In this document: positions 9,683 through 51,687 of the stretch, piece by piece | How positions within the stretch are numbered: position 1 is the first letter of the stretch | How the letters are laid out: each line of letters opens with the position of its first letter | Origin: an uncultured Gemmatimonadaceae bacterium | GTDB lineage: Bacteria; Gemmatimonadota; Gemmatimonadetes; Gemmatimonadales; Gemmatimonadaceae | Reading direction: 5' to 3' | DNA: 64,000 nucleotides | NCBI GenBank assembly: GCA_963781585.1 | Contig: CAWAGQ010000002.1 | Coordinates: 1 to 64,000, forward strand | The notes under the pieces: generated by a model | The model's database searches: none | What the model was told of the DNA's origin: nothing | Seen by the model: only the letters and a program-made list of their open reading frames with translations | Translations under genes and position numbers: made by a program

Positions 9683-10522
9683 TTGCGTCGTCGTATGCCT
9701 GGACGTGAATTGCAGGAGCAGTATTCGGGCCCGCGAGGGCACGTATATGTCGCGATCGAGGACTCGGCGGGGTGTCGCCGAGCGGTCCGCGCGGCGGTGG
9801 CGGTCGCAGACGAGGTCCACGAAGTGCGGATGCTGGACGAGGTAGAAGAGCAGTCCGAGGTCGATGAGCCGAGAGTGATCATCGTCGGATTGCGAATGCA
9901 GGGGAGAGAGCTCTCCCCGTCGCTGCTGCGAGCGTTCCGCCGACGCGACCCGGTGACGTCGATCATCCTGTGCGTGACGGCGGGCGATCGCGCCATTGGG
10001 AATGTGGCTGGGCTCTGTCGCGCGGGAGTCGACGGCCTGGTGGTGTTTCACCACGGGCAGGAGCACGACTACGAGCTCGTGAAGGAGATCGACGAGCGGC
10101 TGATGCACGCGCTGGCGCCATCGTACCGCGACGCGCTGGCATGGGCCGACCGGTCGCGGGGAGCGTTCGAGCAGGAGTGGGTGGCTCGGAACGCCTGGGA
10201 ACCGCTAGACGTGGTCGACATCGCGGACCAGTTCTCCTTGAGCCCGAAGACTGTCTGCCGCGACCTTAAGGTCATGGGCTGGAAAGACGCCAAACGCGCT
10301 CTCGACGGCGGGCGCCTTCTGCACCTCGGGGCAGTCCTCAACGATGATCGCGTGACACTCGAGCAGGCCGCGGAACAGCTCGCATTCGGGAGTGGCAGCG
10401 CGGTCTCTCATTTCGTACGTCGAGTGACGCGTCGAACGGCGGCAGGCTTTCGAGAGGATGGGGCCATCGCCGCCGCGACCGCCCACTGGACGTCGCGCGG
10501 ACATCCTGGCCCGCGAGGATAG
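9683..10522 (+). CDS. AraC-family regulator with receiver-like N-terminal domain (module copy 1)
   Basis: Two C-terminal HTHs (VVDIADQFSLSPKTVCRDL; TLEQAAEQLAFGSGSAVSHFVRRVT). 'RAGVDGL' is shared with the 46525 and 33100 regulators. Start codon uncertain. Confidence 0.8.
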   Translation: MRRRMPGRELQEQYSGPRGHVYVAIEDSAGCRRAVRAAVAVADEVHEVRMLDEVEEQSEVDEPRVIIVGLRMQGRELSPSLLRAFRRRDPVTSIILCVTAGDRAIGNVAGLCRAGVDGLVVFHHGQEHDYELVKEIDERLMHALAPSYRDALAWADRSRGAFEQEWVARNAWEPLDVVDIADQFSLSPKTVCRDLKVMGWKDAKRALDGGRLLHLGAVLNDDRVTLEQAAEQLAFGSGSAVSHFVRRVTRRTAAGFREDGAIAAATAHWTSRGHPGPRG

Positions 10523-10653
10523 GCTCTCGCTCTCGCCATTGAGCGCTGGTCCGCCGCGTGGTGGCGGCGCCTCGCGGCATCGCTCCGGCCGCAACGGCGG
10601 CGCCCACCGCCGATGCGTCCGACAGCACCGACATCGCGTCAGGCCAAGACTCG

Positions 10654-10688
10654 TGACGGAACCCGTCAACGGTTGTCCGAAATGGTCA
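10654..10688 (+). promoter_or_regulatory. Putative AraC-type direct-repeat operator (20-bp period)
   Basis: TGACGGAAcccGTCA at 10654 and TGTCCGAAatgGTCA at 10674, between regulator and cargo. Confidence 0.4.
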
Positions 10689-10828
10689 TTGTCGAACCAC
10701 AGGTTGGCCTCGAGATTGACGACCGCTTGCGCCCTCGTTACGTCGTCCAGCCGGTTCATCGGCCTGCGAGTGTCTCGCCAGCCTCGACATCCTGAGGAGC
10801 TGTTGATGTTCACCAGTGTGACGGCGCC

Positions 10829-12022
10829 ATGGTGCGCCATCCGAACGGAGCCTTCGTGACAGCGTTCGCTCAATCCGATCGTGTTGGACGGGCGATTCTG
10901 TCCATCGTGCTGTCGCTGGTGGCCGCCGTTGCGCCCCACGATCTGCGGTCGCAGCGAGTTGTGCGGATCAACGAAGACGTGTCGTGTCGGTCGTGTGAGA
11001 TCGTGCTCACCCCTGGGCCCCGATTGGGTGATGCGGACGGACCGGGGTCGCTGGTGGCAGAACCGAGTAGCCTTGCATCGGATAACCACGGCCGATTCTA
11101 CCTGACTGAGTTCACGACCGCCCAACCGCCGCTGGTCTTCGATTCTCAGGGACGATTCCTGCGGGAGTTGGGCAGACTGGGACCGGGACCCGGTGAGTTC
11201 CTGATGGCGCGCTACCTCGTGGTTGGTGAGAGCGACAGTGTCTACGTGACCGACGCTCAGGCTGGCAGATTGAGCGTGTTCACTCCTGAGCTTTTGTTGG
11301 CGAGATCGGCGTCCGACGCCGGAGTGGCCAGAGGAATGTCGTTCGAAGTGCTGAACAACGGTTCGATCGTCGTCGCAACGGACGTCCTGACGAGAGAACG
11401 CATCGGATTCCCGCTGCATCTATACGGTCCAGGCCTGGAATTCTTGAAGTCGTTTGGTGCCGATACGCCGGCGTTTGATCCGGGTCACCCGCTTCTCTCG
11501 CGCCGGCGTCTGAGCCGCAGCCACGACGGAGGCCTCTGGTCGGCACGAGCGACGGAGTATGTGATCGATCGGTTCGATTCGAACGGGCGTAGGACGTTGC
11601 GCGTGGTGAGGCAGGCGCCGTGGTTCCGCCCCCACCAAGGGCCGAATCTGATCGAGGACCCGGAACCTAAGCCGAGAATCATGGCGATTTCCGAGGACTC
11701 CTTGGGCCGGTTGTGGGTGCTTACGGTTGTCAAGGACGACCGGTGGAAGACGGCACTCGGGTACAATCTGCCCTCTCGGCTTGGAGGGGGACGCTCGCCC
11801 ATGCCGGTTATCGTCGACGAGGACCGCTACTTCGATACGATCATCGAGGTGATCGACGTCGAAAAGGGCAAACTCGTAGCCACACGACGGGTCCCCCAGG
11901 CAATCCCAATCATTGTGGACGAGAAACACGTTGCCAGGCGCCGCGAGGATCGGTCGGGTGCCTACTACATACAGCTCTGGTCGGTGTCTGTCAGAGACAC
12001 CGCGCGTCACACCCCACGGTAA
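10829..12022 (+). CDS. Secreted 6-bladed beta-propeller (NHL/TolB-like) protein
   Basis: Signal peptide, CRSC, GRLGPGPGEF, IGFPLHL, SFG and FDTIIEVID; paralogous to 47549 and 50563. Start may be GTG 10856. Confidence 0.8.
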   Translation: MVRHPNGAFVTAFAQSDRVGRAILSIVLSLVAAVAPHDLRSQRVVRINEDVSCRSCEIVLTPGPRLGDADGPGSLVAEPSSLASDNHGRFYLTEFTTAQPPLVFDSQGRFLRELGRLGPGPGEFLMARYLVVGESDSVYVTDAQAGRLSVFTPELLLARSASDAGVARGMSFEVLNNGSIVVATDVLTRERIGFPLHLYGPGLEFLKSFGADTPAFDPGHPLLSRRRLSRSHDGGLWSARATEYVIDRFDSNGRRTLRVVRQAPWFRPHQGPNLIEDPEPKPRIMAISEDSLGRLWVLTVVKDDRWKTALGYNLPSRLGGGRSPMPVIVDEDRYFDTIIEVIDVEKGKLVATRRVPQAIPIIVDEKHVARRREDRSGAYYIQLWSVSVRDTARHTPR

Positions 12023-12037
12023 CAAGGAGGCAAGATA

Positions 12038-12529
12038 ATGAAGCTCAGATTCTGCTGCACGCTGGGGCTGGCATTCCTCGCAGCGGTTTCGTCGGTGTCC
12101 CTCGGGATGCCGGCGACGAGGGGAGGTGGCATGCCACTTGAGCACGGGCATGCGATGGCACAGTCGTCATGCCAGGGATGGTGCACGATCTGCGATCTGT
12201 TCGAAAACCTGTGGGTCGTCACCCCGTCAGAGTTGCCGAATGACGAAGATCGCAACGTCGTCTGCGGTCACCACGTCCCTTGCCCAAACGATTGCTGGGT
12301 GAGCGCGAACACCAGTGTTGATCGAATTGTTCACGTTGTGGCGAGTGCGGACGACGAGCAGCTTCGGCTCCTCATGCACCAGGTACCGCGGCTCAAGGTC
12401 AACGCAGCGAGGAAGGCGTTGCAGTTGGATGGCTGCCAGCCTGGCACGGTGGTGATGAATCTGCCAATGTCAGAGCACCAAATGGCTATCGCGACCGCCG
12501 ATGTGCGGACGAGGGTTGCACAGCGGTAG
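12038..12529 (+). CDS. Secreted Cys-rich protein: 6-Cys core plus conserved C-terminal domain
   Basis: RBS AAGGAGG and signal peptide; C-terminus aligns with the 48701-49222 product. Confidence 0.75.
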   Translation: MKLRFCCTLGLAFLAAVSSVSLGMPATRGGGMPLEHGHAMAQSSCQGWCTICDLFENLWVVTPSELPNDEDRNVVCGHHVPCPNDCWVSANTSVDRIVHVVASADDEQLRLLMHQVPRLKVNAARKALQLDGCQPGTVVMNLPMSEHQMAIATADVRTRVAQR

Positions 12530-15723: not shown

Positions 15724-15728
15724 GGGCG

Positions 15729-25426: not shown

Positions 25427-25492
<66 letters not shown>

Positions 25493-25496
25493 TTTC

Positions 25497-33097: not shown

Positions 33098-33099
33098 CA

Positions 33100-33686
33100 A
33101 CGGTGCGCCGGCTCCGGGCGCAGAACCTGCACCTTCCGGTGCTGGTGGGCGTGCGCAACGTCCTCGTGCGCGACGTTCCCGTGAAGGCCTACGCCCGCGG
33201 CGGCGTGGATGCCCTGTTCCTGCTGGATTACCCGTTCGAGCGCGAGGAGCTGGTGAAGGAGGTGCACGCGCGGCTGGCGGTTCCCGTGCCTGCGCGCGTG
33301 CTCGACGCGCTGGGTCCACTGCTTGCGCCCGGCGTCGGCAGGACAATCGGGTGTTGGTGCATGCGCAACGCGATGCGGACGTGCCCCGTACGCCGCGTCG
33401 TCGCCTTCTTCCGGATGGACGAGAAGCAGCTCGATGACTCCGTGGAGGCCCTCGGTCTTCCGGCGGTGGGGACGCTCCTCAGGCTCGGGTGTCATCATCG
33501 TGCGCGCGAGCTGGAATCGTGGGGTGGGGTGTCGAAGGGCTGATTGCAGAGCGGCTGGGTTTCCCCGACGCCAAGTCGCTGGCGACGATGCGGCGTCACC
33601 TGCGCGCGTTACCGCGCCTGGCCAAGGTCGCTGCGCCGATTCGGGAGCTTCTGACGATGGGGTTGGAGGCGGGGCGTGCGGATTAG
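33100..33686 (+). pseudogene. 5'-truncated receiver-like AraC regulator (module copy 2), frameshift near 33540
   Basis: Aligns with about 46727-47301 (RDVPVKAYAR-GVDALF, GVGRTIGCWCMRNA, IAE-LGFPDAK). Confidence 0.8.
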
Positions 33687-33778: not shown

Positions 33779-33820
33779 ATATTCTCCAGAAAGTTGCGCC
33801 ATTTGCCAGAAAGTGAGGTG
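33779..33820 (+). promoter_or_regulatory. Putative AraC-type direct-repeat operator (CCAGAAAGT x2, 20-bp period)
   Basis: CCAGAAAGT at 33786 and 33806; conserved at 47392 and 47412. Confidence 0.7.
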
Positions 33821-33926
33821 GCGCCCCCCGCAAGACCGTCACACTTTCGCATCGCATAGGTACGCGGACGTTCGATCTTCACTTTGTCTCCATCATCGTC
33901 CTACCCTTAATTAACCGGAGGTTGCG

Positions 33927-34202
33927 ATGCGGCCCACCCAGTTGAAGCTTCTCGGAATCGCAGTCATCGCGGCCGGCGGCGGAGTCTTGTTGGTCGAGCC
34001 CGCTGCAGCCCGCGCGATGCCGACCAGTTGTGACACTATTGGCGAGTGCGTGAGCGAGTGCCCGAGTGAAGAAGAGGTAATAGATTGGTGCGCCGACGAA
34101 GCGATTGCGCACGGTTGCATGCTGACGGGAGGCGGTTGCAACAACTGGGAGGGCAACTGCTCGATTGCATACAAGCACTGCCACATGAAGGAGGCCGAGT
34201 AG
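33927..34202 (+). CDS. Secreted 8-Cys acidic peptide (candidate disulfide-rich peptide or RiPP precursor)
   Basis: RBS GGAGG, signal peptide ending AAA/ARA, mature region with 8 Cys and many D/E/S/T. Confidence 0.75.
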   Translation: MRPTQLKLLGIAVIAAGGGVLLVEPAAARAMPTSCDTIGECVSECPSEEEVIDWCADEAIAHGCMLTGGGCNNWEGNCSIAYKHCHMKEAE

Positions 34203-34475
34203 TGCCGAGCATCCGTCCCAGCCGCAATGCGGCGCTGTGTCTGTGAGCCATAGCTTCGTTGGGTCGGGATGCCACCTTCGCCATGTCGGAGGAGAGCCGC
34301 GTGTTCACAAAGGACGATGGCCGTGGAGTCTTTAGCACGGTGCATTGCCCGCGTCATCCCTTCGGACTTCACGGTTACACACATAGTGCGTCGGCGCGCA
34401 CCGTAATCGTTGGCGTCTGCCCCGTATGGCACTCGCCCTCAAGTACGGGTTCCAACACGCTCTGGGAAGATCTCA

Positions 34476-35162
34476 ATGCCAAAAGGCCCATCACGCTCTC
34501 AGCGAGGCCGGACAGACGTCGCGGGCGCCACGATTGCCGTCTGCGCGGTGCTGATGACACTCTTCGTCGGATATCGGGAACTCGCTCCCACGCCGCAGGA
34601 CATCAGATTGATACCACCGCCGGCCCAACTCGATAATTGGGCGGCGATTGCAACGAACGACCGTCCTCGGCTGGGGCCAGAGCACGCTGCTGTCACCGTG
34701 GTCGAGTTTGGTGATTTCGAGTGCCCGGCTTGTCGAGCGTATGCGGCCACCTTGGACTCCGTCCGTCGCCGCTATCCCGCTGATGTGAAAGTACTGTTTG
34801 CACACTTTCCAATATCCTATCATCGGTTTGCTATCCCCGCCGCAAGGGCCGCCGAGTGCGCGAATGTACAGGGGCGTTTCGAGCAATTCTACTACGCTGT
34901 CTTCGCAAACCAGGACTCGCTCGGCTTGATGCCGTGGTCCAGCTTTGGGGAAGCGGTGGGAATCCCGGATCTCCCAGGTTTCATGAGCTGCGTCGCGGCG
35001 CGCGCGCCGATAGATCGAGTAGGTCGCGATACACTACTTGCGAAAGAGCTTGGCGTACGTGGAACGCCAACAATCCTGGTCAACGGTTGGAAGTGGAGCC
35101 AACCACCCTCGTTCGCGACGCTCGACAGCGTGGTGCAGCATGAGCACAATCGGGCCCCCTAG
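34476..35162 (+). CDS. Membrane-anchored DsbA-family thiol-disulfide oxidoreductase
   Basis: VVEFGDFECPAC, HFP, AARAAECA and GVRGTPT (cis-Pro loop) motifs. Confidence 0.9.
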   Translation: MPKGPSRSQRGRTDVAGATIAVCAVLMTLFVGYRELAPTPQDIRLIPPPAQLDNWAAIATNDRPRLGPEHAAVTVVEFGDFECPACRAYAATLDSVRRRYPADVKVLFAHFPISYHRFAIPAARAAECANVQGRFEQFYYAVFANQDSLGLMPWSSFGEAVGIPDLPGFMSCVAARAPIDRVGRDTLLAKELGVRGTPTILVNGWKWSQPPSFATLDSVVQHEHNRAP

Positions 35163-35163
35163 C

Positions 35164-36459
35164 ATGCGGATTCGGGCATACGGCATCCACGGACTGCGGA
35201 CTATCGTCGCATGCAGCACCCCTGCGGCGTTGTGGCCGCAGGCGCTGGCGGTAATCAATCCTGCGCCTGACTTCAGTTCGCCGAGTTTTCACGTAGGGCG
35301 CGAATTGACGCGGCTGGACACGGACCTGTTGCATGAGATGTATGGCGTGCGACAGGTGACTTTTTCGGAGCGAGGAAGGCTCTTGGTGGCGATTCCAGAT
35401 GTGATGGAGGTGCGCGAATTCGATATGCAAGGTCGGCTTCTTCGCCGGATCGGGCGGCTTGGCTCGGGGCCCGGCGAAAACCGCTCCATTTCGAGTCTCA
35501 TGCGGTTGGCAGGTGACTCGGTCCTCGTCTACGATCAACTCCAGCGCCGGATCAACATTTTCGGACCCGCGCGTCGTTTCGCACGGAGCGTGACCGTCCG
35601 ATACGCAGTCGATCGATGCTGCAGCCCGACGGGCATATATCTCGGCCAAGTCCCGACGACTCCCCAACCACGGACCACATCAGGCCTCGCGATGACAGCT
35701 GACTATCGCATCGCGTCTTGGCGTGGACCGCCCGTGGTCGGGAGCGACCGCAAGTCGCTCGTCACATCAGACACGGCGCGCATTCGCCTGTTCGCGAGGG
35801 CCCCGAGAATTGTGCTGGACCGCAGTCGCGGCGTTGACGGCGAGTTCAGCTTCGGGCCCGTTTATCAGATCCCGTTCGTGGTTCCTCCAATGATCGCGTT
35901 CACGGAGCACTGCATTGTCAATGCGAGTGGTGCAGAGTACGAGATCCACATTTACTCATCCAACGGCCGTCTGCTGCGGGTCGCGACTGCTCCCGTGGCG
36001 CCCGAGCCCGTTACGCGAACAGATATACGCCGCATGCGAGACTCGCTTTCGGCGACGGTGCCGGACGAGGCCCAGTCGCGCCGGCTGTTGGCAGCCCTGG
36101 ACACGATCCGCCTGCCGTCATCCCATCCAGTCATTGACGCGCTGCTCGCCGACGGTACGTCAATCTGGGTCCGCAGCTGGAGCGCCAAGCCATCCGGGGC
36201 TGAGCGGTGGGCGCGCTTTGACGAAGAGGGCCACCTGCAAGGTAGTCTGGTTACTCCTCCCAATCGTCACGCCGTTGCTTTTTTTCAGGGGCGCATTGCA
36301 CTTTTGGAAGAAGATCCCGCCACAGGTTTGCAGCACTTGAGCGTTTCCTCAATCACACAAAACGCGGTCGGGGGGCAGGAAGGTAGGCCGGTACCGAGCA
36401 TGGTCTCGCGCCGCGACCGGCGGGTCGATGGCCCGACCGTAACTGATCCATGCTCATGA
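35164..36459 (+). CDS. 6-bladed beta-propeller protein (second subfamily)
   Basis: FDMQGRLLRRIGRLGSGPGE, GDSVLVYD, YEIHIYSSNGRLLR and WARFDEEG motifs. Start uncertain (35140 or 35164). Confidence 0.75.
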   Translation: MRIRAYGIHGLRTIVACSTPAALWPQALAVINPAPDFSSPSFHVGRELTRLDTDLLHEMYGVRQVTFSERGRLLVAIPDVMEVREFDMQGRLLRRIGRLGSGPGENRSISSLMRLAGDSVLVYDQLQRRINIFGPARRFARSVTVRYAVDRCCSPTGIYLGQVPTTPQPRTTSGLAMTADYRIASWRGPPVVGSDRKSLVTSDTARIRLFARAPRIVLDRSRGVDGEFSFGPVYQIPFVVPPMIAFTEHCIVNASGAEYEIHIYSSNGRLLRVATAPVAPEPVTRTDIRRMRDSLSATVPDEAQSRRLLAALDTIRLPSSHPVIDALLADGTSIWVRSWSAKPSGAERWARFDEEGHLQGSLVTPPNRHAVAFFQGRIALLEEDPATGLQHLSVSSITQNAVGGQEGRPVPSMVSRRDRRVDGPTVTDPCS

Positions 36460-37019
36460 CATGTCGCTACCGGGCGGTGGCCTGCGCCCTCTGGTTCAGC
36501 ATAACGACGAGTTGTGCTACGAACCGGCGCACTACGTTTCCGCGTTCGCCGAATCCCATGCGACTGGTGGCGAGCTCGCTGGAAACGCCCGACGGTCAGG
36601 CGTTTACTGTACGAGGCAGGTTTGAAGGAACCGTGCTGGTGCGAGGGGGCTGGATCGATATCATCGTTCCCGCTGCTACCATTGCGTTTCGGCAGTCGGT
36701 GGTGGACATACGGTATCGTTCCCTCCGAGTGCGGGCCGCGCTAGCATCCGGTTCACAACCTCGGCCATGGCGCATTATCTCCGAGAGCAGGGCAATTCCG
36801 CTTCGCCCGCTCCTGGCGAGGGCGCTCACCAGCGCCGACTCCGCGCAGCGCGTGCTCGTCGATACCCTGCGTTTCGAAGTGCCGCTGCCGCGTGAGCTGC
36901 CGGCCGATCGGGTTTGGATTGCATTCGAATTCGAGTTTGTAGACACGAGCGCTAGCGGTTTCTGCCAGCTGGCTTGGACCTACGCGCATGCGGAACCGCC
37001 GCTGCAGGTATCCCGATGA
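36450..37019 (+). CDS. Putative lipoprotein of unknown function
   Basis: Overlaps the upstream stop; hydrophobic N-terminus ending ITTSC; beta-rich. Confidence 0.55.
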   Translation: MLMTCRYRAVACALWFSITTSCATNRRTTFPRSPNPMRLVASSLETPDGQAFTVRGRFEGTVLVRGGWIDIIVPAATIAFRQSVVDIRYRSLRVRAALASGSQPRPWRIISESRAIPLRPLLARALTSADSAQRVLVDTLRFEVPLPRELPADRVWIAFEFEFVDTSASGFCQLAWTYAHAEPPLQVSR

Positions 37020-37308
37020 CCCGAGTGAGCACGGACCGGATGGTGGCCGCAGCAGCGCCCGCCCCCTCCGGTACGTGCTGCGCGTGAGGCAGGATGGCCG
37101 CTGGGTCGAACTTCGACGGAGAAGATCGGCCGCCCGAGTCTGGCCGCGTCAGCCCAGCAGCCGGGCGAAACCGGGAACTGTTCGTCCACCCATCACTGCG
37201 GACGAATGTCGTATCAGTACCTGGTACTGAAATGGCGTCTTCTCAATGCACCGGTTGTCGCGCGCAGGCTCTGGCCAAAGAACGTGGGACGCGCGAGCAG
37301 CGTGCGTC

Positions 37309-38886
37309 GTGAGCGCCTATGCGCTGGTGGTGGGCTTTGGTGGAACGAGCGAGTACCGACAGCAACTCAGAGCCCGTTTTGCATCCCACGGCTTGCACTC
37401 CCTTTTCCTCGATAGGTGGGACGAGTGGCACATTTCGCTGTTTCCAAATAGCGCATCGTATCAGCTGCGGTCGGTGGGCGGTCTGCCTACTGTGCGGGCG
37501 CCTGATGTGAGGGTCGTCTTGTTATTCGGTTACCCGTCACCGCCCGAGGTTGACGCAGCGGACACGTACTACCAAGCCGTCGAGTACGAGGCGCTGCTGT
37601 TCGGCCTCTGTGCGCTTGCTACTCCGGTGACTGCATCGAGATGGCAGTTTCTTGCGATGGGGTATTCAGATAGTCGCCAGCGAGTCGGCATGGGCCATGA
37701 TGTCCTCCAGCTCTGGCCGTCAGTAACAGGCCTCTTCGAACTTGGTGCACGTGAGGCTCTGCTATTCGGCGACGGCTGCATCTACCTGACCGCGGAGCGA
37801 CAGGTCGTTTGCCCGTCCATCTGGCCTTGGTCACCTCAGATACCGTTCCCCGTCACGCTTGAGCTCGATGTGGCTCGCAGCGAGTTCGTTCCGCTGGTGG
37901 GCATGCTCCCTGACTGGACTCCACCGAGCAGCACCATCTTGCAGGCTATCATCGCGGCATCGTTGGGCGGTCAACACAGCTGGCGCAGCATCGTCGAGAC
38001 GCCCATTCCCCGCATGATGCCTGCGGGAGTGGGACGTATCGGCATTGTGGCGCATCGCACTGATCAGACGGCAATACATCTGCTGCACCGGTGCAGAATT
38101 CAGGGAAAGCGGTCGACCCTCCTGGACCTGACCTTCCTTTACTCGCGCTCTTGTCCTACCGCCGTATTCGAAGAAAGCCTGGAGCAGCTGCACCATGAAC
38201 CGCTCGTGTTCGCGCGACCGCTGCTTGTAATCCGGGCCGGGGATCCGAACAACACGCTTGCCCCCGAACGCCACATGCGAGTGCTTCGCACTCTACAGCA
38301 GAGGTTCCTCCCCACCATGAATCCTCCCGCCGCAGGTCATACCAATTTCTCGAAATCCGCTCACGCCGCATGCCTGGTCGAGCAGGGCTTGGACGTACCT
38401 GCGACGCTTGCTACCAACGATGCTGCCGCAGCTCGGGATTTCCTCGCTGAATACCGGCATGTGATATACAAGTCGGGCAGCTGGATGAGGAGTCTCGCCG
38501 CCGTACTTCGGCGAGATGATGTCGATCGCCTCGAATCCCTGCATAACTGCCCCTGCCTTTTCCAGGAGCGGATCGTGGGGCCCAGCTGTCGGGTTCACAC
38601 TGTGTTCGACGAGCAGATGTCTCTGCTGATCAATATTCCAGGCGTGGATTATCGCCCACGCGTTAGCGCGCACCACTGTCGGCCGATAGAGCTGCCAGCG
38701 CCGCTTTCACGTTCGCTCTCAGCGGCAGCTATGGCTGCCGGGCTCGCCTTATCCGGCTGCGACGTTATCTGGAGCCCGGATTCCAAGAAGTGGCTCACAC
38801 TTGAAATCAATCGCATGCCGGCGTTTGCCTTCTACGATCACTTGTCGTCGATGTCGGTTGCGGATGCTGTGCTGGATCACGTATGA
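37309..38886 (+). CDS. RimK/MvdC-D-like ATP-grasp ligase fused to an N-terminal, probably degenerate, ATP-grasp-like domain
   Basis: MNPP...NFSK, GLDVPATLATND, VIYKS, CLFQERI, RVH, DYR, GCD and LEINRMPAF motifs. Start uncertain (ORF opens at 37246). Confidence 0.8.
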   Translation: MSAYALVVGFGGTSEYRQQLRARFASHGLHSLFLDRWDEWHISLFPNSASYQLRSVGGLPTVRAPDVRVVLLFGYPSPPEVDAADTYYQAVEYEALLFGLCALATPVTASRWQFLAMGYSDSRQRVGMGHDVLQLWPSVTGLFELGAREALLFGDGCIYLTAERQVVCPSIWPWSPQIPFPVTLELDVARSEFVPLVGMLPDWTPPSSTILQAIIAASLGGQHSWRSIVETPIPRMMPAGVGRIGIVAHRTDQTAIHLLHRCRIQGKRSTLLDLTFLYSRSCPTAVFEESLEQLHHEPLVFARPLLVIRAGDPNNTLAPERHMRVLRTLQQRFLPTMNPPAAGHTNFSKSAHAACLVEQGLDVPATLATNDAAAARDFLAEYRHVIYKSGSWMRSLAAVLRRDDVDRLESLHNCPCLFQERIVGPSCRVHTVFDEQMSLLINIPGVDYRPRVSAHHCRPIELPAPLSRSLSAAAMAAGLALSGCDVIWSPDSKKWLTLEINRMPAFAFYDHLSSMSVADAVLDHV

Positions 38887-40644: not shown

Positions 40645-40666
40645 GGGAGTGAATCTCCTCTCATCG

Positions 40667-43422: not shown

Positions 43423-43586
43423 GGCGGGAATCCTACCCGACGGCGTGGGCGCCGCCAAGTTGGCTTGTGCGGGAGGCCTTCCTGCGCCGATCGCCGGGGC
43501 CGACGACAGGGACAGCGCCGGCGCCGCGGCTCGATGTCGTCGGTCTCCCTGCCACCGTGGGACTCGCGTTGCAGTCGTCAGGCTCT

Positions 43587-44311: not shown

Positions 44312-45092
44312 ATGATTTCGGCGAGCGCTGCCGTGACAGCAATGCTTCTGGCCCATGCGGCAGGCGCGCAGAGTCGGCAGCCTGGTTGGGCGCGTCACGT
44401 CGGACTCGCTCGGTGGCGGCGGCATTTCGGCCGAAATCACCGCGCCGGCGCTTCACGCCGTCGCGCACACGGACTCGCGGGGGACCTACCGCCTCACTGG
44501 ACTCGAGCCGGGACGGTATCTGGTCGAGGCACGGGCCGTCGGATTCAAGACCGCGGCGGACAGTGTGGACATTCCTCGGTCACGTGAGGCGGGGCACGAC
44601 TTCGTCCTCACCAGGCTCGTCCCCGTGCTCCCCCCGGTCGTGACGACGAGTCCGGAAGTCAGGTACCTGTCGCCGGGGCTGCGGGGCTTCGAGGCGCGAC
44701 GCCATCACGGCTTCGGACACTTCATTGCCGAGGACATGCTTCGGAAGCATGACGATGACAGTCTGTCTGATCTGCTGAGCACGCGAATCCCGGGGGTCTT
44801 GATAGCCCGTGCAGGTCAGAACGCCGCGTATGTCTCGTCGAGCCGGAAGTCGGAGGGCGGCATCCGGGCCTTCGGCAGCGGTAGCCGGCCAATTCCCTGC
44901 TATACCACGATCTACCTGGACGGTGCGCTCTTCTACGACGCGACGCTTTCCGTGCAGCCACCGCCCGACATCAACCAGTTCACTGTCCATCAGTTGGGCG
45001 GGGTCGAGTTCTACGCAGGTTCGGCCACCACGGCCGAAGGGTTCAGGGTTTCGCCGTGCGGGACGCTCTTGCTGTGGACGCGCGAGCGGTAG
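44312..45092 (+). CDS. CarboxypepD_reg plus TonB-plug protein (gene B, complete copy), frameshift near 44375
   Basis: Signal peptide in one frame, then GRYLVEARAVGF, GFEARR and CYTTIYLDG...VEFY...CGTLLLWTR. Confidence 0.8.
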
Positions 45093-45151
45093 TGCCGGCT
45101 GCGCGACCCGAATGGTATCGGATCTCGGCGGCCGGGGGCGAGCCGGTACGA

Positions 45152-45206
45152 CTTAATGAACTCTTAATCCTCGCGTAATGGTCTGATCGGCCTGGGGCCG
45201 CATCTT
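45152..45206 (+). promoter_or_regulatory. Second triple CTTAAT/CTTAAT/CGTAAT box plus -10-like CATCTT
   Basis: Boxes at 45152, 45163 and 45174; flanks homologous to 30079-30142. Confidence 0.7.
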
Positions 45207-45329
45207 GGAGCCGGGTTCACGGCGGCGGTGGCGGGACTCTGGCCGGAACGGCTTTGTGCGAGCTCAACGCATCAGGTCGGACAGCCGGGTCATCCCGACG
45301 CACGGGTATGGCAGCCCTGGGAGGATACC

Positions 45330-46190
45330 ATGGCGATGCACGAGCGGACTGTCCGTTGGCTGGTCGCATGCTTCGGCGGCCTAACGATTCTCCCGATGGC
45401 GGCTGCCGCGCAAACCGGCGGCACGCGCGTCCTCTCGGGAGTCGCGGCCGACACGTCCGGCAACCGCGTGCCATACGTCACGGTCTGGTTCGCCGGGACG
45501 CGCCGAACGGTCAGTGACGATTCGGGACGGTTCCGTGTGGAGCTGCCGCGGGAGGCCGGAGTCACCGTGCAGCTGCGCCGGCTGGGTTTCGCCCCGACCG
45601 ATGTTCGCCTCGAGTTCGGCGGCGACACCGCGATGACGATCACGCTGGTACCGGTGGCGGCGAAACTGGCGGCGCTGCGCGTGCAGGCGGAACAGCAGGT
45701 GCTCAGTCTCGAGCTGCACGGGTTCTACGAGCGAATGGCCGAGCAGGAGAAGTGGGGCGGGTCGGGACAGTTCGTCACGCCGGAGGAGATCGAATTCCGC
45801 AAATCGCCGCGAACCACGCAGTTGCTGGACGGCCGGCACGGAGTGGCGCTCAAGGGTGTGGGAAGCTGCAACGTCCAGGTGCAGTGCTTCGTCCCGTTAG
45901 GCACGAACAACTGCATCATGCAGATATACCTCAATGGACAACGCCTGATGCCGACCGGAGGCGCGCGCGCCACCGCCACGGGCGGTATGGTGGCGACGGC
46001 GTTCAGGGCCCTGTCGGGCCAGGCGGCCGTAGCGGGTGGACTGGGTCCGGGCAACGTGGTCTTTCTCGATGATTTCGTGCATCCCTCGGAGCTCGCCGGT
46101 ATCGAGATCTATCAACGGGCGGTTCAGGCACCGCCGCAATACCAGATGCTGAATGGCAATTGCGGTGTGATTCTGGTGTGGACCAAATGA
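45330..46190 (+). CDS. CarboxypepD_reg plus TonB-plug protein (gene C)
   Basis: RBS GGAGG, signal peptide, SDDSGRF, RRLGF, GFYERM and CIMQIYLNG...IEIY...CGVILVWTK. Confidence 0.85.
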   Translation: MAMHERTVRWLVACFGGLTILPMAAAAQTGGTRVLSGVAADTSGNRVPYVTVWFAGTRRTVSDDSGRFRVELPREAGVTVQLRRLGFAPTDVRLEFGGDTAMTITLVPVAAKLAALRVQAEQQVLSLELHGFYERMAEQEKWGGSGQFVTPEEIEFRKSPRTTQLLDGRHGVALKGVGSCNVQVQCFVPLGTNNCIMQIYLNGQRLMPTGGARATATGGMVATAFRALSGQAAVAGGLGPGNVVFLDDFVHPSELAGIEIYQRAVQAPPQYQMLNGNCGVILVWTK

Positions 46191-46276
46191 GAGCCGCGTT
46201 TCCGCTCATCGTCCAAGGACTGGGCGGGGCGGCGTAGGGTCCTGTCGGGGCGCTCGTTCATACTGCGTGCTGTCGC

Positions 46277-46323
46277 GCCGCCACCGCGAACGCCAGAGAG
46301 TACCGCCGCAACCCGTCCGCTGA
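46277..46323 (-). repeat. Near-identical copy of the 3' part of the 49383-49781 gene
   Basis: gccgccaccgcgaa(c/t)gccaga(g/a)agtaccgccgcaacccgtccgctga matches about 49460-49505. Confidence 0.8.
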
Positions 46324-46524
46324 CTCCCACGGGAGACGCAAGAGATCGGATACGCTTGGCACCGGGAAGCGGTACGTCGCAGAGTGTCAGGGAGCGGCTT
46401 CCACGCTTGCGCGACCGCCTCGTCGTCATGCAGGTGAGGTATCGATGTCCACGTCATCGTCGTCGCGGTCAGTGCCTGACACGGGCTCAGCCGGGGGGGG
46501 CACCGCGATTCGCCGGCGCAGCAG

Positions 46525-47301
46525 GTGCACCGGGTGCCTGAGATCCTCGTGGACCTGGAAGCGCGCCCGCTGTGGAACGAGATCGTGGAGGGATTGGGCG
46601 CGATCACGGCGCGATTCATCGACGTGGCCGCAGCAGTACGCAAGGTCGATTCCGGCGAGGTTCGTGCTGCCGCTCTCGTCCTGTTGGGCGACCGCACCGC
46701 GGACGGTGCGCCGAGCGAGCTGACGGCGCGCCGGCTGCGGACGCTGAACGTACACGTGCCCGTGTTGGTCGCCGTGGTCAACGTTCGGATGCGCGACGTT
46801 CCGGTGAAGGCCTACGCCCGCGCCGGCGTCGATGCCCTCTTCCTGATGGACCTTCCGTTCGAACGTCAGGAACTCGGGAAGGACCTGCGCGCGCGACTCA
46901 TGCTTCCCGTCCCTGCACGCCTGCTCGATGCCTTCGGACGACTCCTCAGGCCGGGCGTCGGCAGGACCATCGGGTGCTGGTGCATGCGCAATGCTACGCG
47001 GACGTGTCCCGTGCGTCGCGTGGTCGACTACTTCCGAATCGATGAGAAGCGGCTGGATAAGGAGGTGGAGGCCCTCGGCCTTCCCCCGGTGGGGACGCCT
47101 CTCAGGCTCGGGTGTCACCATCGTGCGCTCGAGCTGGAAGCGAGCGGCGCGCTCTCAATGGAAGGGATTGCGGAGCAACTGGGTTTTCCCGACGCCAAGC
47201 CGCTGGCAGCGATGCGGCGGCACCTGCGAGGGTCACCACGTCTGGCGGCAGTCGCGTCGCCCATTCGGGAGCTTCTGATGATGGGGTTGGAGGAAGTGTA
47301 G
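46525..47301 (+). CDS. Receiver-like AraC-family regulator (module copy 3)
   Basis: RAGVDALF motif and C-terminal SMEGIAEQLGFPDAKPL HTH; homologous to the 9683 and 33100 regulators. Confidence 0.75.
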   Translation: MHRVPEILVDLEARPLWNEIVEGLGAITARFIDVAAAVRKVDSGEVRAAALVLLGDRTADGAPSELTARRLRTLNVHVPVLVAVVNVRMRDVPVKAYARAGVDALFLMDLPFERQELGKDLRARLMLPVPARLLDAFGRLLRPGVGRTIGCWCMRNATRTCPVRRVVDYFRIDEKRLDKEVEALGLPPVGTPLRLGCHHRALELEASGALSMEGIAEQLGFPDAKPLAAMRRHLRGSPRLAAVASPIRELLMMGLEEV

Positions 47302-47384
47302 GGGCCATCGCAGGGTGCGGTGTAGCATTTCCGGGATGTGACGACAACGTGGCGCCACGGGACCGGTGACCTCCACGCGCTCCA

Positions 47385-47428
47385 ATATTCTCCAGAAAGT
47401 TGGGGCATTCGCCAGAAAGTGACGTGGT
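47385..47428 (+). promoter_or_regulatory. Putative AraC-type direct-repeat operator (CCAGAAAGT x2, 20-bp period)
   Basis: CCAGAAAGT at 47392 and 47412. Confidence 0.7.
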
Positions 47429-47548
47429 GTGCTGGGGACTGCCAGTCGTAACATGTCACAACATGATGTTATCCGTGAACTCTTGAACGGCATGGAGGAG
47501 TATCATGTCGCAGCATCCCGTGCTCGTGCGCGCTGCGTTAGTGGTATC

Positions 47549-48691
47549 ATGAGTCCAGTTCTACGGCGTCACGGTCCGCCGCGCGACCGTCCGATCCGTT
47601 TCGTTCACGCCCTCGTTCTCGGCGGCTTGCTGTGCGCCAGCCGTCCCCTGCGGGGCCAGGACGTGCGGCTGCCGGAGCGTGGCACCTGCTCTCGATGCCG
47701 AGTCGTGCTGGAGCGGATGGGCACGCTCGGTACGGACACGCTGGACGGGTACCTCACGAACTATCCCATCTGGGCGGCCATGGATGGCGAGGGGCGCGTG
47801 TACGTCACGCTGCAGCCGCCTGGTGATCTTGTGCTCGCCTTCGATTCGCTGGGGAAATTTCTTGGACGTGTTGGCAAGAAAGGTCAGGGTCCGGGCGAGT
47901 TCGCCTTCCCGGTCCTGGTGCTTCCGCGGGCCGACAACTCACTACTCATCTACGATTTCAACGGCTCGAAGCTCTCCACGCTCACGCGCGATTGGAAGTT
48001 CGTCAGCATGGTGCGCCAGACCGCAGCCCCGCTGGGCGTTCTGGCGGACGGTCGGAGGCTGGTCAACAACCCCGCGATTGATCGAGATCTCGTCGGATAT
48101 CCACTGCATCTCGTCGACAGCACGGGCAAGACCGTGGCGTCGTTCGGCGCCGACTCAGGTCGCTTCGAACAAGCAGATCGCTGGAAGCTGACGCGGACGG
48201 TGTCGGTGGGACTGCGTGGCACAATCTGGTCGGCCTATTTCGATCGGTATCGGATCGATGAGTGGTCCCCGGACCTTGACCGCCTGCGCGTCTTTCGGCG
48301 GGCTGTCAGCTGGATGCCAATTGTTGCAGCGCTCTCCGACGGCGGCCTCGGCGAAAGACCGTCGGCACGGGTCGTCGCCCTTCGAGAGGATGAGTTGCAC
48401 AGGCTCTGGATTTTCTCCCGAGTCCCGAGCGAAGAGTGGCGAGCTGCGCTCGGCCCCCCGGTTGCAGCCGGCCGTCGAACAACCTACCCGCAGCTGGACG
48501 AAGGACGACTCTTCGATACGATGATCGACGTGATCGACTTGCGGACCAATCACCTGCTCGTAACACAGCGCGTGCGGGAACACATCAGGTTCTCCCTCGA
48601 CACGCGACACGTCGCGTCGTATCGCGAGGATGAAAAGGGCACTCCACTGCTCGTGCTGTGGAGAGTGTCGCTGGTCGGCGTTCAACGATAG
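47549..48691 (+). CDS. Secreted 6-bladed beta-propeller protein
   Basis: Signal peptide, CSRC, GKKGQGPGEF, VGYPLHL, SFGAD and FDTMIDVID motifs. Confidence 0.8.
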   Translation: MSPVLRRHGPPRDRPIRFVHALVLGGLLCASRPLRGQDVRLPERGTCSRCRVVLERMGTLGTDTLDGYLTNYPIWAAMDGEGRVYVTLQPPGDLVLAFDSLGKFLGRVGKKGQGPGEFAFPVLVLPRADNSLLIYDFNGSKLSTLTRDWKFVSMVRQTAAPLGVLADGRRLVNNPAIDRDLVGYPLHLVDSTGKTVASFGADSGRFEQADRWKLTRTVSVGLRGTIWSAYFDRYRIDEWSPDLDRLRVFRRAVSWMPIVAALSDGGLGERPSARVVALREDELHRLWIFSRVPSEEWRAALGPPVAAGRRTTYPQLDEGRLFDTMIDVIDLRTNHLLVTQRVREHIRFSLDTRHVASYREDEKGTPLLVLWRVSLVGVQR

Positions 48692-48700
48692 GGAGGAACT

Positions 48701-49222
48701 ATGCAGATGCAGATGCATGTTCTCCGCGGAATGATGCTGTGCGGCGTGCTATTCGTGTCAGCCGCCGGCGCGTGATGGCCGCCATCCTCAAATCCTGCTC
48801 GGTGGTCATCAGGGCCCGCGGCCGGTGACCTTTCCGTCATCGCAGTGTCTCGACCCGCGCTCACAGGTTGCTTCGGCTGCTTCCCGGGTGGCTATGGGGA
48901 TCCCGTGATCTGCTCGTCCGGCCAGCATTTCGATCAGACAGGCACCTCCGAATTCTGGCGGGACAACATGGACGCCGGCTGCGTGTGGACGGAGTGTCGT
49001 GATGTTCACAACAGCTGCAACGTCACGCTCGCTCCCGTGATCGATGCCGTGAAGAGTGCGATTGCCGAGAATGACTTCGCGGAAGTCCGGGCGCTGATGA
49101 AGGACGATCCGCACATCGAGTACAATGCGAGACGCTCCGCCATTCAGGTGATCGGATGCGACTCAACTGTGCTCCTGCATGTCCCGCTGAGCAGAGCGAA
49201 ACGAACGAGCCTTCTCCATTGA
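48701..49222 (+). CDS. Secreted Cys-rich protein (paralogue of 12038) with in-frame TGA at 48773-48775
   Basis: RBS GGAGG, 24-aa signal peptide, TGA, then the same frame continues to a 6-Cys core and the conserved C-terminal domain. Confidence 0.7.
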
Positions 49223-49382
49223 CGCGTTGGCCTGCAGCAACCGTCGTAATAAGGTTGCCGACAGATCGCAGCTTCCAGGCCGGTTCAGCAGCGTAACGGC
49301 ACGAGGCGGAGGAGCGTGCCGGTCCACCAGTACGCTCTTCCGTCCCGGCCTGCAGGGCACATGCAGCGGTGACAGTCAACCG

Positions 49383-49781
49383 TCAGGGTCCCGTCCGCAG
49401 ATCGAGGCCAACAACCTTGTTTGCCTGGGCTGATCCATCGTGCTCGACTTCCCGCCTTGCCGCCACCGCGAATGCCAGAAAGTACCGCCGCAACCCGTCC
49501 GCTGAATCCGGCGGTACTTCCGGATCGAAGAACAGCCGGCAGAACTCCTCGCGCGCCCGCAACACCTCACGACGCCGCGGACCCCTCCACCGCTCGTCAC
49601 CCGCGGTGAAGTCGAACAACTCGAGCGCCCTGGCCAGCGCGTGATCGAATCGACTCCGGTTCCCGGACTCCCACGCGCGGATCGACCGCTCCACCTCGCT
49701 CCCCACGTGGGCCATCTGCTCCACGATCGAAAGCGTGCGCCACCGCGCCGCTCGCTCCGCCTGACGAGTCGTCTCCGTCAT
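49383..49781 (-). CDS. Conserved helical hypothetical protein coupled to DUF5674
   Basis: ATGA overlap; WRTLSIVEQMAHVGSEVER...ALELFD...EVLRAREEF. Confidence 0.65.
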   Translation of the reverse strand: MTETTRQAERAARWRTLSIVEQMAHVGSEVERSIRAWESGNRSRFDHALARALELFDFTAGDERWRGPRRREVLRAREEFCRLFFDPEVPPDSADGLRRYFLAFAVAARREVEHDGSAQANKVVGLDLRTGP

Positions 49782-50137
49782 GCGTCGCTCACGAGACGTG
49801 ACACGGTATTCCGGACACGCTCGCGCAGCGCGGCATCTTGCACACTCCGGCTCCGATTCCGATCCGCCGGCCGCACGTTGATCATCGAGTCGAACTCGAT
49901 CCACCCCTCGCCGTGCTCATCCGGGTACAGATTGATTCCCCACAGGGATGCCTGTCGCGACCCGTCATCCAGCAGCGCCGCTTCCTCATCCGAATGCAGC
50001 TCCCCTCCGGCCGCCATGACGTCCCGGTCGATATCCACGACGGCCTTCACCATGTCCCCGAACTGACGCTCCGCCATGGTACGGAGCTCCGCACGGGTGA
50101 GCGGACTGCGGACGAGGATGATGTCGGGACGTTCCAT
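49778..50137 (-). CDS. DUF5674-family protein
   Basis: MVKAVVDI, GGELHSDEEAALL, LWGINLYP and EFDSMINVRP..NRSR motifs. Confidence 0.75.
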   Translation of the reverse strand: MERPDIILVRSPLTRAELRTMAERQFGDMVKAVVDIDRDVMAAGGELHSDEEAALLDDGSRQASLWGINLYPDEHGEGWIEFDSMINVRPADRNRSRSVQDAALRERVRNTVSRLVSDA

Positions 50138-50562
50138 GAGGCAGGGCTACTGTCGGGGTGCCACGGACCGGGGCGCGCAAACTTGCCTCCGTCCCTGGTG
50201 CCGCTCAAGTGCACAGGCCAGCACATCGAGCCCGGAGAGCCGCGACGTCATCAGGTCAGGCAAGCACGTCAGCAGCGCGGTGACCCGCTCTCGAGCACCG
50301 CCGCCCACGTCGCGAGCGGTCGACGGCTCGAGTCCCACGTTGAGTCCCAGGAACGGGCTGGCCAGGAGGCCCACGTACGACGGTGCTGAGGCGCATGGGG
50401 ATTGCCGCGAGTGTGTCCAGAGGGGTACCCTCGCCATTCGTCGTGCAATCCAACGGATGATTCTGAAGCGGTGCGCGCGGCGCGATTCGGGCACCCTTCA
50501 TGTGACGGCGCCGACGGTCACCCCCGTCGTTTCGGCCATCCATCACTATTACCTCGGAGCGC

Positions 50563-51687
50563 ATGATGTCCGCTGCAGCCCGCCACACCCTGCGAATAAC
50601 GCCGATGGTCCTGGCTGCACTGGCGCTCACGGTAACCGCGGTGCCGGCGCAGGAGATGATCATCGCTGATCGTGTCACATGCGCTCGCTGCTCCATTGAG
50701 CTGAACCTTCGGTTGACTCTCAACACGACCGGTACCGGAGGAACCACGGGCGTTCCGCTGCAAGTGGTTCCGTTGAGTGATGGCCGACGTGTGGTCCGGC
50801 TCGCCGGGCAGCTTCCGACTGTCCTGTCCAGCAATGGCCGCGACCTTCGTGAAATCGGTCGCCGCGGCGCGGGCCCCGGGGAATTTCAGGAAGTGGCAGA
50901 TGTAGCGCGACTGCCTGGCGATTCGCTGCTGCTGCTGGATTCCGACCTGAGTCGTGCATCGGTGCTGGGGCCTGACGGCATGTTCGTGCGGTCGGTGACA
51001 CTGCCGTTCTACACCTCCGGCGTCGCTGTTCTGGACTGGCCCCGCAATGTCGTCGTGAATGGAATGAGCCATACCCCTGATGCGGTTGGCTGGCCTCTTC
51101 ACTTGATGGACTTCTCCACTTCGCCGGCTCGCCTCCGGTCATCCTTCGGAGACAACCAGGCGGAACTCCGCGCCGGGCAGGACTTCACTCTAATCCGACG
51201 CTTTTTCGCCGTATCCGGTACGTCCTTCTGGACTCACCAAATCACGAGTTATCAACTCAGCCGATACTCCGCAGACGGACGAATCCAAGGGACGATTCGT
51301 CGTCAACCAGAATGGTTCGCCCGCGAGTCGCCGTGGACCGTAGGCGGTCCGACCATGGCTCCTCCGCCATTCCTTCAGGCGGCGGCTGTACGGAATGACA
51401 CACTCTGGGTTGCCGCCGCTATCCCGCGGCCCGACTGGCAGAGGGTATGGCACTCCGACCGAATCGCAGGGAAACGAGAGCTGACGCGCGCCGAAAGGCC
51501 TGATCTGGTCGAACTCTACAAGACCCGACTCGAAGTGATCGAGTTGCGCAGGGGCGCCCTGGTCGCCCAGCGGGATGTGGACGGACTCGTCGTCACGATT
51601 GATAACCGACTGGGCGCAACGCTGTACACGCTGAACCGCGAGCTGGAGCCCAAGGTCCAGGTGTTCGATCTTCAACTCAAGCGATGA
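50563..51687 (+). CDS. Secreted 6-bladed beta-propeller protein (orphan copy)
   Basis: Signal peptide, CARC, GRRGAGPGEF, VGWPLHL, SFG and YKTRLEVIE motifs. Confidence 0.8.
   Translation: MMSAAARHTLRITPMVLAALALTVTAVPAQEMIIADRVTCARCSIELNLRLTLNTTGTGGTTGVPLQVVPLSDGRRVVRLAGQLPTVLSSNGRDLREIGRRGAGPGEFQEVADVARLPGDSLLLLDSDLSRASVLGPDGMFVRSVTLPFYTSGVAVLDWPRNVVVNGMSHTPDAVGWPLHLMDFSTSPARLRSSFGDNQAELRAGQDFTLIRRFFAVSGTSFWTHQITSYQLSRYSADGRIQGTIRRQPEWFARESPWTVGGPTMAPPPFLQAAAVRNDTLWVAAAIPRPDWQRVWHSDRIAGKRELTRAERPDLVELYKTRLEVIELRRGALVAQRDVDGLVVTIDNRLGATLYTLNRELEPKVQVFDLQLKR

Follow-up and report, generated by a model that had tools for sequence, protein, structure and literature searches.

The animal protein NHLRC2 combines a thioredoxin-like domain and a six-bladed NHL propeller in one chain. 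In Bacteroidota, small proteins of the NVEALA family (PF14055) are encoded beside genes for TolB-like or DUF5128 propellers, and our literature search found no description of their function. The Gemmatimonadota are abundant in soil and have been little studied. In this work we analyze 64,000 nucleotides (nt) from an uncultured Gemmatimonadaceae bacterium, bases 1-64000 of contig C2 (CAWAGQ010000002.1), which we call the window. It encodes several exported propellers (P), two of them accompanied by a small exported protein rich in cysteine and histidine (S). The genes and the pairing of S with P are real and conserved, the pair is undescribed and the S family has no database model. An earlier note on this DNA had proposed a thrice-repeated module made of an AraC-type regulator (R), a repeat with a period of 20 base pairs (bp), a propeller and a secreted cysteine-rich protein, which would form a small-protein/propeller partner unit. 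The partner unit has stood up well. However, the conserved unit is S with P, not the regulator-propeller-S trio. The arrangement in three parts is local and in part the product of duplication, and the regulators ahead of the pair, which lie in swapped gene blocks, are restricted to the bacterial family to which the window belongs.

The assembly has 5.7 Mb in 17 contigs, with a completeness of 93.5% and a contamination of 7.2%. The named relatives of the window proteins come from metagenome-assembled genomes of Gemmatimonadota or Gemmatimonadales.

A plant protein, SOQ1, found in the thylakoid lumen and built like NHLRC2, shares several parts with the pair. Its thioredoxin-like domain is reported to have its redox motif where it meets the NHL propeller, and electrons are received by a small domain at the C-terminus, which holds a redox-active pair of cysteines and is involved in disulfide exchange. 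What SOQ1 and NHLRC2 have in common with the pair is the combination of an NHL propeller and a thiol-redox motif, in a setting that is non-cytoplasmic or redox-related. P, on the other hand, has no thioredoxin domain: a CxxC motif is found in its N-terminal strand, or a DsbA-like protein is encoded separately, and S is a separate gene. Since P has no thioredoxin domain, P and S fall outside the SOQ1 family and the resemblance is in parts only; the match of the P profile to SOQ1 is faint (E 0.063). The DUF5128 and DUF4221 proteins of known structure (4raa, which is Bacteroides fragilis BF0058, and 3s9j) are structural matches of P and are exported like it, but as far as we have seen, neither a CxxC at the N-terminus nor a pairing with S characterizes the DUF5128 family in Pfam. 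The Bacteroidota parallel drawn in the earlier note holds for the propeller, P does match DUF5128. NVEALA resembles S in being a small exported protein encoded beside a DUF5128-type propeller, in some cases together with a thioredoxin-like gene. S is twice as long, with a Cys/His motif and a C-terminal domain of its own.

The S family and its propeller partner

S genes are far from rare. An exhaustive profile search gives 2,778 cluster representatives at E <=0.001, and 1,309 at E <=1e-10. Those relatives that carry a name are called 'hypothetical protein', and a word-based search with the S alignment returned six proteins, unnamed or 'hypothetical'. None of 26 members matches anything relevant in Pfam, NVEALA included, and there is no NCBIfam model; S1, S3 and the 91-amino-acid (aa) protein of module 2 have no Pfam match at E up to 0.1 and 0.01. 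We found no paper describing the family, and nothing relevant on DUF5128 or on Gemmatimonadota cysteine-rich and beta-propeller proteins. The alignment leaves out L035, L041 and L045, where no start codon could be placed, L055, which is nearly identical to L056, and L057, the 27th usable locus.

The consensus of 146 representatives is C..C - H - (W)H - C-x3-H-x2-C, followed by R.A.QV.GC(D)G..V.AH.P. Conservation is high: 95-97% for C..C, 86-88% for the two histidines, 95-99% for C-x3-H-x2-C and 100% for each of R, Q and C in the R.A.QV.GC motif. Cysteine counts are mostly odd, 5 or 7. Aligned members open with a hydrophobic, signal-like segment, with the exception of S3, which was entered from a GTG after its TGA codon. 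S1 and S3 have 30% identity, chiefly in the C-terminal 60 residues. The C-terminal domain (approximately residues 90-163) is modelled as two helices, three strands and one helix, mostly with a predicted local distance difference test score (pLDDT) above 90 and block means of 82-97. It has no fold match: a search of 48,161 chains with the S model gave none at Z >=5, the best match having Z 4.6 and a root mean square deviation of 2.6 over 58 residues, and the ESM Atlas look-up for S1 gave no usable match. A search for longer, fused forms of S found none, which is weak evidence, and the one representative of 400 aa has a mis-called start and is no fusion. A cytochrome c reading was also discarded. 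The haem-binding motif CxxCH is found in just 3 of the 146 representatives, so that a weak match to 4xxl (E 8e-4), which rests on the signal peptide and CxxC, is not meaningful.

The distribution of S in the phylum is patchy. We have detected it in 36 of 400 other genomes: 10/93, 9/166, 2/30 and 15/70 in families f1, f2, f6 and f7, respectively, and 0/41 in eight other families. In all 29 loci fetched from other genomes, which cover four families and 20 genera, P directly adjoins S on the same strand; by our estimate, based on about 60 P genes in 5.7 Mb, the chance of finding P in a random 3-kb stretch is approximately 5%. When 20 loci were refetched with 6-kb flanks, the adjacency was present in all of them, and no other family recurred, apart from antisense open reading frames (ORFs) within P. 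The flanks contain a weak regulator match in 2 of these 20 loci. The earlier note had suggested looking at neighbourhoods across Gemmatimonadota to see if its families stay together: S and P do so, the regulator does not follow them.

S does not pair with just any propeller, its usual partner is the subfamily of P which carries CxxC. A propeller of this type neighbours 22 of the 29 S genes, downstream only in ten loci, upstream only in nine and on both sides in one; in two more loci it lies upstream of S while a propeller without CxxC lies downstream. In the 20 large loci, 17 of 19 CxxC-type P genes are in contact with S, as against 4 of 16 others (Fisher p 1.4e-4, with two P genes without the GxGPxE motif classed as non-CxxC). 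This value is overstated, because the genomes are related.

P is an NHL-type six-bladed propeller, both by its model and by its profile. The P1 model has a pLDDT of 89.8, and its best Foldseek matches are the NHL domains of Thin, TRIM2, Brat and TRIM71 (E 1e-11 to 1e-13), followed by DUF4221 (3s9j) and BF0058 (4raa), with E around 1e-10, and by the peptide lyase PAL (3fvz). The profile of the family gives E 9.5e-53 against the TRIM71 NHL domain, over five stretches, 1.6e-10 against 4raa and a local match to PAL. P1 (29.5 bits) and P3 pass the DUF5128 (PF17170) gathering cut-off of 22.9 bits, P2 and P4 fail it; the match spans about 60 residues, corresponding to one blade region (profile positions ~53-117 of 321). 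The four propeller ORFs lie where the earlier note had located them, at 10829, 35038, 47429/47549 and 50563, and P1, P3 and P4 do have in common CxxC, GPGEF, G[FYW]PLHL, SFG and T.[IL][ED]VI, with identities of 28-36%. Three polar residues of P are nearly invariant (E123, H197 and D142), and each of them is found once per protein, not once per blade.

These propellers are not a speciality of the window. A profile of four sequences has 52 matches in this genome, and 61 ORFs are found at E <=1e-8 after two rounds of profile building. P is also found in 23 of 60 sampled genomes of the phylum, several with 15-28 scored copies. The commonest neighbours of the paralogues in this genome are CarboxypepD_reg proteins (20 propeller loci), large permeases and kinases. 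CxxC is found ahead of the GxGPxE motif in 8 of 55 full-length paralogues, which include P1, its copy on another contig (C6), P3 and P4. It is located some 11-14 residues from the mature N-terminus, in the N-terminal strand.

What the pair may do

Our tentative reading, which we rate as just short of an even call, is that S and P form a two-protein unit outside the cytoplasm, centred on thiols or on a metal. The two-gene operon would yield two exported proteins which cooperate there, P being a soluble propeller. We propose that S docks on the propeller by its conserved C-terminal domain, and that between its Cys/His segment and the CxxC of P there is either disulfide exchange or a shared metal. 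In this scheme the propeller would carry a relay of thiols or metal, in the way that the NHL domain serves as scaffold for the thioredoxin-like domain of SOQ1. Propellers without CxxC, which tend to have a separate DsbA-like gene and other small cysteine-rich exported proteins as neighbours, may do the same job with separate parts. In the family of the window, and only there, the cassettes would be preceded by AraC-type activators with a receiver-like domain that could not be phosphorylated. The binding of S to P, the thiol or metal chemistry and the activation by the regulators are what we infer from these data.

The distribution of DsbA-like genes speaks for the version with separate parts. 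Of the 16 DsbA-like ORFs of this genome, nine have a P gene at no more than 400 bp, and in seven of these cases the P gene is without CxxC. On contig C9, a propeller downstream of an R1-type regulator is followed by genes for exported proteins of 89 aa (9 Cys) and 70 aa (8 Cys). Small numbers as they are, these loci can be sorted into three types of cassettes: CxxC-type P with S; DsbA-like protein with plain P, sometimes with a small cysteine-rich protein; and DsbA-like protein with a small cysteine-rich protein only.

Several observations weigh against a thiol- or metal-centred unit. The contrast between DsbA neighbours and CxxC is based on small numbers from one genome, with no statistical test. 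No DsbA-like gene is found within 6 kb of S-P in the other 20 loci, which fits a replacement of DsbA by CxxC and fits equally well the absence of any redox link. In 7 of the 29 S loci the only P neighbours are without a full CxxC. The nearly identical copy of R1-P1 on C6, P4 and two more CxxC-type paralogues all have no S, so P can exist without it. The Cys/His segment of S is poorly modelled (pLDDT <50, residues 35-79). Finally, the genome has two S genes only, S1 and S3, and a TGA immediately behind the signal peptide interrupts S3.

A different possibility, which we consider unlikely, is that S and the propeller are the small and the large subunit of a periplasmic enzyme, S being permanently bound, and that the Cys/His/Trp segment holds a metal or a self-made, cross-linked cofactor. 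Quinoprotein amine dehydrogenases have such an arrangement, with a propeller subunit and a small cysteine-rich subunit. The four cysteines and three histidines of S, kept in 86-99% of the representatives and with a frequent tryptophan before the second histidine, look more like a set of ligands than like plain disulfides; the strict pairing with P and the single occurrence of E123, H197 and D142 point in the same direction. However, no genes for cofactor maturation recur near the pair, where S and P are the only recurring families in 20 loci, S has no match to such subunits in sequence or fold, and most P paralogues have no S. A haem c enzyme would need the CxxCH motif that nearly all representatives of S lack.

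A more ambitious form of the thiol or metal reading is in our opinion doubtful, and somewhat less credible than the permanent subunit. S and CxxC-type P might together be a new redox or metal enzyme outside the cytoplasm, with an active centre across their interface made of the CxxC of P and, from S, the four cysteines and three histidines plus a lone invariant cysteine. This enzyme would be common in Gemmatimonadota, where its sequences form thousands of clusters, and its cassette would be exchanged between strains, adapting the envelope to changing chemical challenges.

The earlier note had proposed another explanation, in which S is a disulfide-rich toxin or signal for secretion and P acts as the cognate receptor, chaperone or immunity protein; S might also be a bacteriocin, and the pairs would diversify under conflict. 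Some features agree with it, such as the patchy distribution just described, with several copies in some genomes, the divergence of the paralogue pairs (36% identity for P1-P3, 30% for S1-S3), the base composition of the cassettes (G+C 0.61-0.65, below the 0.66-0.72 of the flanks) and the different cargo found at the same promoter in the window and in C6. We nevertheless regard it as improbable. Neither S nor P matches a toxin, immunity or defence family, and PADLOC gave no matches on 12 proteins. Polymorphic toxins combine a conserved N-terminal trafficking region with a variable C-terminal toxin, and have a small immunity gene next to them. S is the reverse, its C-terminal domain is the most conserved part and its Cys/His motif is conserved as well. 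There are no genes for export or release across the outer membrane among the neighbours, an immunity protein which is a propeller of 380 aa would be unusual, and S is absent beside most of the ~60 paralogues.

Two other explanations hardly survive. The idea that S is the precursor of a ribosomally made and modified peptide, with P as the modifying or processing enzyme, draws on the local profile and Foldseek matches between P and PAL (3fvz), an NHL-type lyase which acts on peptides, and on the maturase-like ATP-grasp gene of module 2. We find it very improbable: the ATP-grasp gene is present only in this module, which has no S, and scores 68 bits where 350 are required, no maturase recurs beside S-P in the 20 loci, and S, unlike leader-core precursors, combines a Sec signal peptide with a folded domain of 75 residues. 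The least credible explanation, that adjacency is a by-product of an expanded and recombining propeller family with no functional link, would suit the ~60 P paralogues, which neighbour many other expanded families, but not 29 same-strand adjacencies out of 29 in four families and 20 genera, nor the preference for the CxxC subfamily.

Modules, regulators and cassette exchange

The features of the window which concern the modules are listed in Table 1. Modules 1 (9683-12529) and 3 (46525-49222) contain R, P and S, as the earlier note had it, module 2 differs in order and content. The three modules are not equal, since the regulator of module 2 is a decayed duplicate of R3 which carries different cargo. 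A cysteine-rich gene is present in each module: S1 and S3 are homologous, the one in module 2 is unrelated to S and precedes the propeller. As for the 20-bp-period repeat after each regulator, it is exact after R2 and R3, and after R1 there are just two loosely similar units. P4 is an orphan, as described.

Table 1. Location of regulators, repeats, propellers and associated genes in the window.
Feature	Positions	Strand	Remarks
R1	9683..10522	+	AraC-type regulator, N-terminal receiver-like domain, Gly instead of phospho-acceptor Asp
Two loosely similar 20-nt units, GTCA..TTGTC..GAA	10665..10704	+	Between R1 and P1; weak operator candidate
P1	10829..12022	+	Exported six-bladed NHL/DUF5128-type propeller, N-terminal CxxC (C53, C56)
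S1	12038..12529	+	Small exported Cys/His-rich protein; AAGGAGG site ahead of start
R2	33103..33686	+	R3-type regulator remnant; ORF pieces 33103-33543 and 33489-33686
Direct repeat CCAGAAAGT-N11-CCAGAAAGT, 20-bp period	33786..33814	+	Candidate binding site of R3-type regulators
91-aa signal-peptide protein, 8 Cys	33927..34202	+	Upstream of propeller; not S-related
DsbA-like thioredoxin-fold protein, CPAC motif	34410..35162	+	Thioredoxin_4 9.3e-19, DSBA 4.3e-11; between 91-aa gene and P2
P2	35038..36459	+	Divergent propeller paralogue without CxxC; 25% identity to P1; DUF5128 14.3 bits
189-aa ORF	36450..37019	+	No Pfam match; one relative in the genome
546-aa protein	37246..38886	+	C-terminal 190 residues are an ATP-grasp domain resembling ribosomal-peptide maturases
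56-nt direct repeat, left copy	46277..46332	.	Flanks R3-P3-S3; 91% identical to right copy
R3	46525..47301	+	Intact regulator of the R1 family, 26% identity to R1
Direct repeat CCAGAAAGT-N11-CCAGAAAGT, 20-bp period	47392..47420	+
15-codon mini-ORF MSQHPVLVRAALVVS	47505..47552	+	Overlaps P3 start (ATGA)
P3	47549..48691	+	CxxC propeller; DUF5128 26.0 bits; 36% identity to P1
S3	48701..49222	+	S family; ATG 48701, signal peptide, in-frame TGA 48773-48775, mature part (ORF 48845-49222)
56-nt direct repeat, right copy	49459..49514	.
P4	50563..51687	+	CxxC propeller; no regulator or S alongside; absent from C6; DUF5128 12.7 bits

Homology between the three regulator ORFs (9683-10522, 33103-33543 and 46525-47301) is confirmed, and R.GVD.L and EL.K....RL are found in all of them. 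They belong to the AraC/XylS class. The HTH_18 domain is detected in 14 of 18 family members (best E 8.1e-14); R1 alone has E 4.4e-4, under the Pfam cut-off, and R3 alone has no match. The regulator profile matches the DNA-binding part of AdpA (1e-14) and has a weak similarity to receivers (KdpE, 2.3e-5). Like AraC/XylS activators with a receiver-like N-terminal domain, the family has a C-terminal double helix-turn-helix. Unlike them, all six regulators which precede P or DsbA-like genes have Gly in place of the phospho-acceptor Asp: R1, R3 and four out of four from other genomes, the column being assigned by reading the alignment. Members with no link to P or DsbA-like genes mostly keep the Asp. 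Without the phospho-acceptor Asp, R1, R3 and the four others would not be two-component response regulators, and no gene for a partner kinase was noted next to R1, R2 or R3 in the ORF list or by Pfam. Several cysteines are found between the receiver-like and DNA-binding parts of R3-type regulators (CxC, C and C-H-H, in GCWCMRN...C...LGCHH), and these might be a redox- or metal-sensing site.

A model built from the three regulators finds the family in 12 of 93 genomes of the same bacterial family as the window and in none of 307 elsewhere, and the earlier note's inclusion of the regulator in the conserved unit has to be abandoned. In this genome there are 18 ORF matches, corresponding to approximately 15 genes, six of them within 1.5 kb of P. 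In other genomes, 6 of 16 regulator loci have P or a DsbA-like gene next door, downstream in five cases; in some of these genomes the order is regulator, DsbA-like gene and P. From this distribution and these neighbour counts, the link of the regulator is real but local.

The exact repeat CCAGAAAGT-N11-CCAGAAAGT appears twice in the window, after R2 and R3 only, while none is expected from 100 shuffles. There are four paired CCAGAAAGT sites in the whole assembly, all at loci of R3-type regulators. The arrangement, two direct repeats at a distance of 20 bp, is similar to that of the half-sites bound by AraC-type activators, and R3-type regulators probably bind these two repeats. Between R1 and P1, the two units start 20 nt apart, at 10665 and 10685, as read by eye and with no chance control; no exact repeat was found there by pattern search or Tandem Repeats Finder, which reported nothing in the regulator-propeller spacers. 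Scans for sigma-70 promoters and terminators around modules 1 and 3 gave no sites, and Rfam gave no matches in the whole window. In module 1, only 16 nt separate the stop codon of P1 from the start of S1.

In module 2, the alignment of R2 with R3 DNA begins around 200 nt into the R3 frame, R2 is without some 66 N-terminal codons and has a 1-nt deletion. The late start and the deletion identify it as a decayed duplicate. R2 arose by segmental duplication: 30077-33821 matches 44375-47427 with 79-87% identity, and stretches of it recur at 39450-40662 (89-94%). For the 91-aa protein of the cargo, phmmer finds no homologue in the genome, and the protein cannot be aligned with S. The ORF at 34410-35162 is a DsbA-like oxidoreductase by its domain matches and its CxxC, and the true start of P2 is probably later than 35038. 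Taken as a candidate maturase of a graspetide-type cluster, the ATP-grasp protein has E 7.4e-19 (68 bits) against TIGR04187, far under the cut-off of 350 bits, its N-terminal 350 residues match no family, and no precursor peptide was identified for this gene.

Repeated CarboxypepD_reg coding stretches, also with a TonB Plug domain, are found upstream of R2 and R3 (30215-33184, 39126-40652 and 44355-46190). The 989-aa ORF at 30215 is partly of low complexity; the frame which it overlaps at 31680-32636 looks better, and this points to frameshifts or to frames joined wrongly. Between the duplicated segments there are two small ORFs similar to nucleotidyltransferases, at 41648-42205 (-) and 42985-43458 (-), one with a weak NTP_transf_5/AbiEii match below the cut-off, the other with Polbeta at 4.2e-9.

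In module 3, ATG 47549 is more likely to be the start of P3 than 47429, the start of the longest ORF. The mini-ORF that overlaps it is a remnant of the signal peptide of an 86-aa cysteine-rich protein, whose gene is found at 36335-36595 on C6, behind the same promoter, and opens with MSQHPVLVRAALVV. With its TGA codon, S3 is a pseudogene or else a selenoprotein; a gene for tRNA-SeC is present in the genome (contig C4:507125-507221). An 11-bp hairpin with a 17-nt loop starts at the UGA, with a z of just -1.5, which is unconvincing, and S1 has no cysteine at the matching position. A weak S-like match in genome G203 with two TGA codons, considered as support for selenocysteine, looked spurious in all three frames of the strand and was dropped. 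Both copies of the 56-nt repeat fall on a single overlapping stretch of the syntenic contig C6. A DUF5674 gene (49778-50137, -, 3e-35) lies beyond the module, together with an overlapping or adjacent 173-aa ORF (49383-49904, -) whose 3' end holds the 56-nt repeat.

Bases 1-54006 of C6 are syntenic with 2570-64000 of the window, with an identity of ~84-94% outside the cassette blocks. C6 is probably a related strain that was binned together with the window, otherwise a large duplication. It is precisely in the regulator/propeller cassettes that the two differ. Identity reaches 98.9% in the R1-P1 block, as compared with 84-93% in its flanks, and S1 is missing on C6. The cargo of module 2 (33822-39450) is absent from C6. 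The R3 orthologue keeps its repeat site there, but different cargo replaces P3-S3: the 86-aa protein with 8 Cys and a DsbA-like gene come first, then the repeat site appears again and is followed by one more DsbA-like gene and a 96-aa protein with 6 Cys. Cassettes are thus swapped at fixed promoters between haplotypes.

A second cluster of this kind is found on contig C9 (124800-140400), with two R1-type regulators, one of them frameshifted, several propellers and DsbA-like genes; its two tandem small exported proteins have a CC..C..CC..CC pattern. Elsewhere in the window there are arrays of 7-nt tandem repeats with related sequences (CCTCTGG / GGCCTCT / ATGACCT, 6-15 copies) at 7421-7526, 25427-25493 and 59594-59654, and a perfect tandem duplication of 40 nt at 3423-3513 (2.3 copies, 100% identity).

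Meaning for envelope biology

The new findings are how large the S family is, the motif by which it is marked and its specificity for CxxC-type propellers, together with the AraC-type regulators without Asp, their repeat site and the comparison of haplotypes. This comparison between C6 and the window offers a tractable case of turnover of envelope genes. The S family is now linked with a single subfamily of an exported propeller that has expanded massively, and this provides a concrete pair of proteins to express. If an NHL propeller, a thiol motif and a small cysteine-rich exported protein do form a recurrent module of the envelope, this could explain the bacterial propellers of DUF5128 type, and could give a bacterial counterpart of the SOQ1/NHLRC2 architecture.

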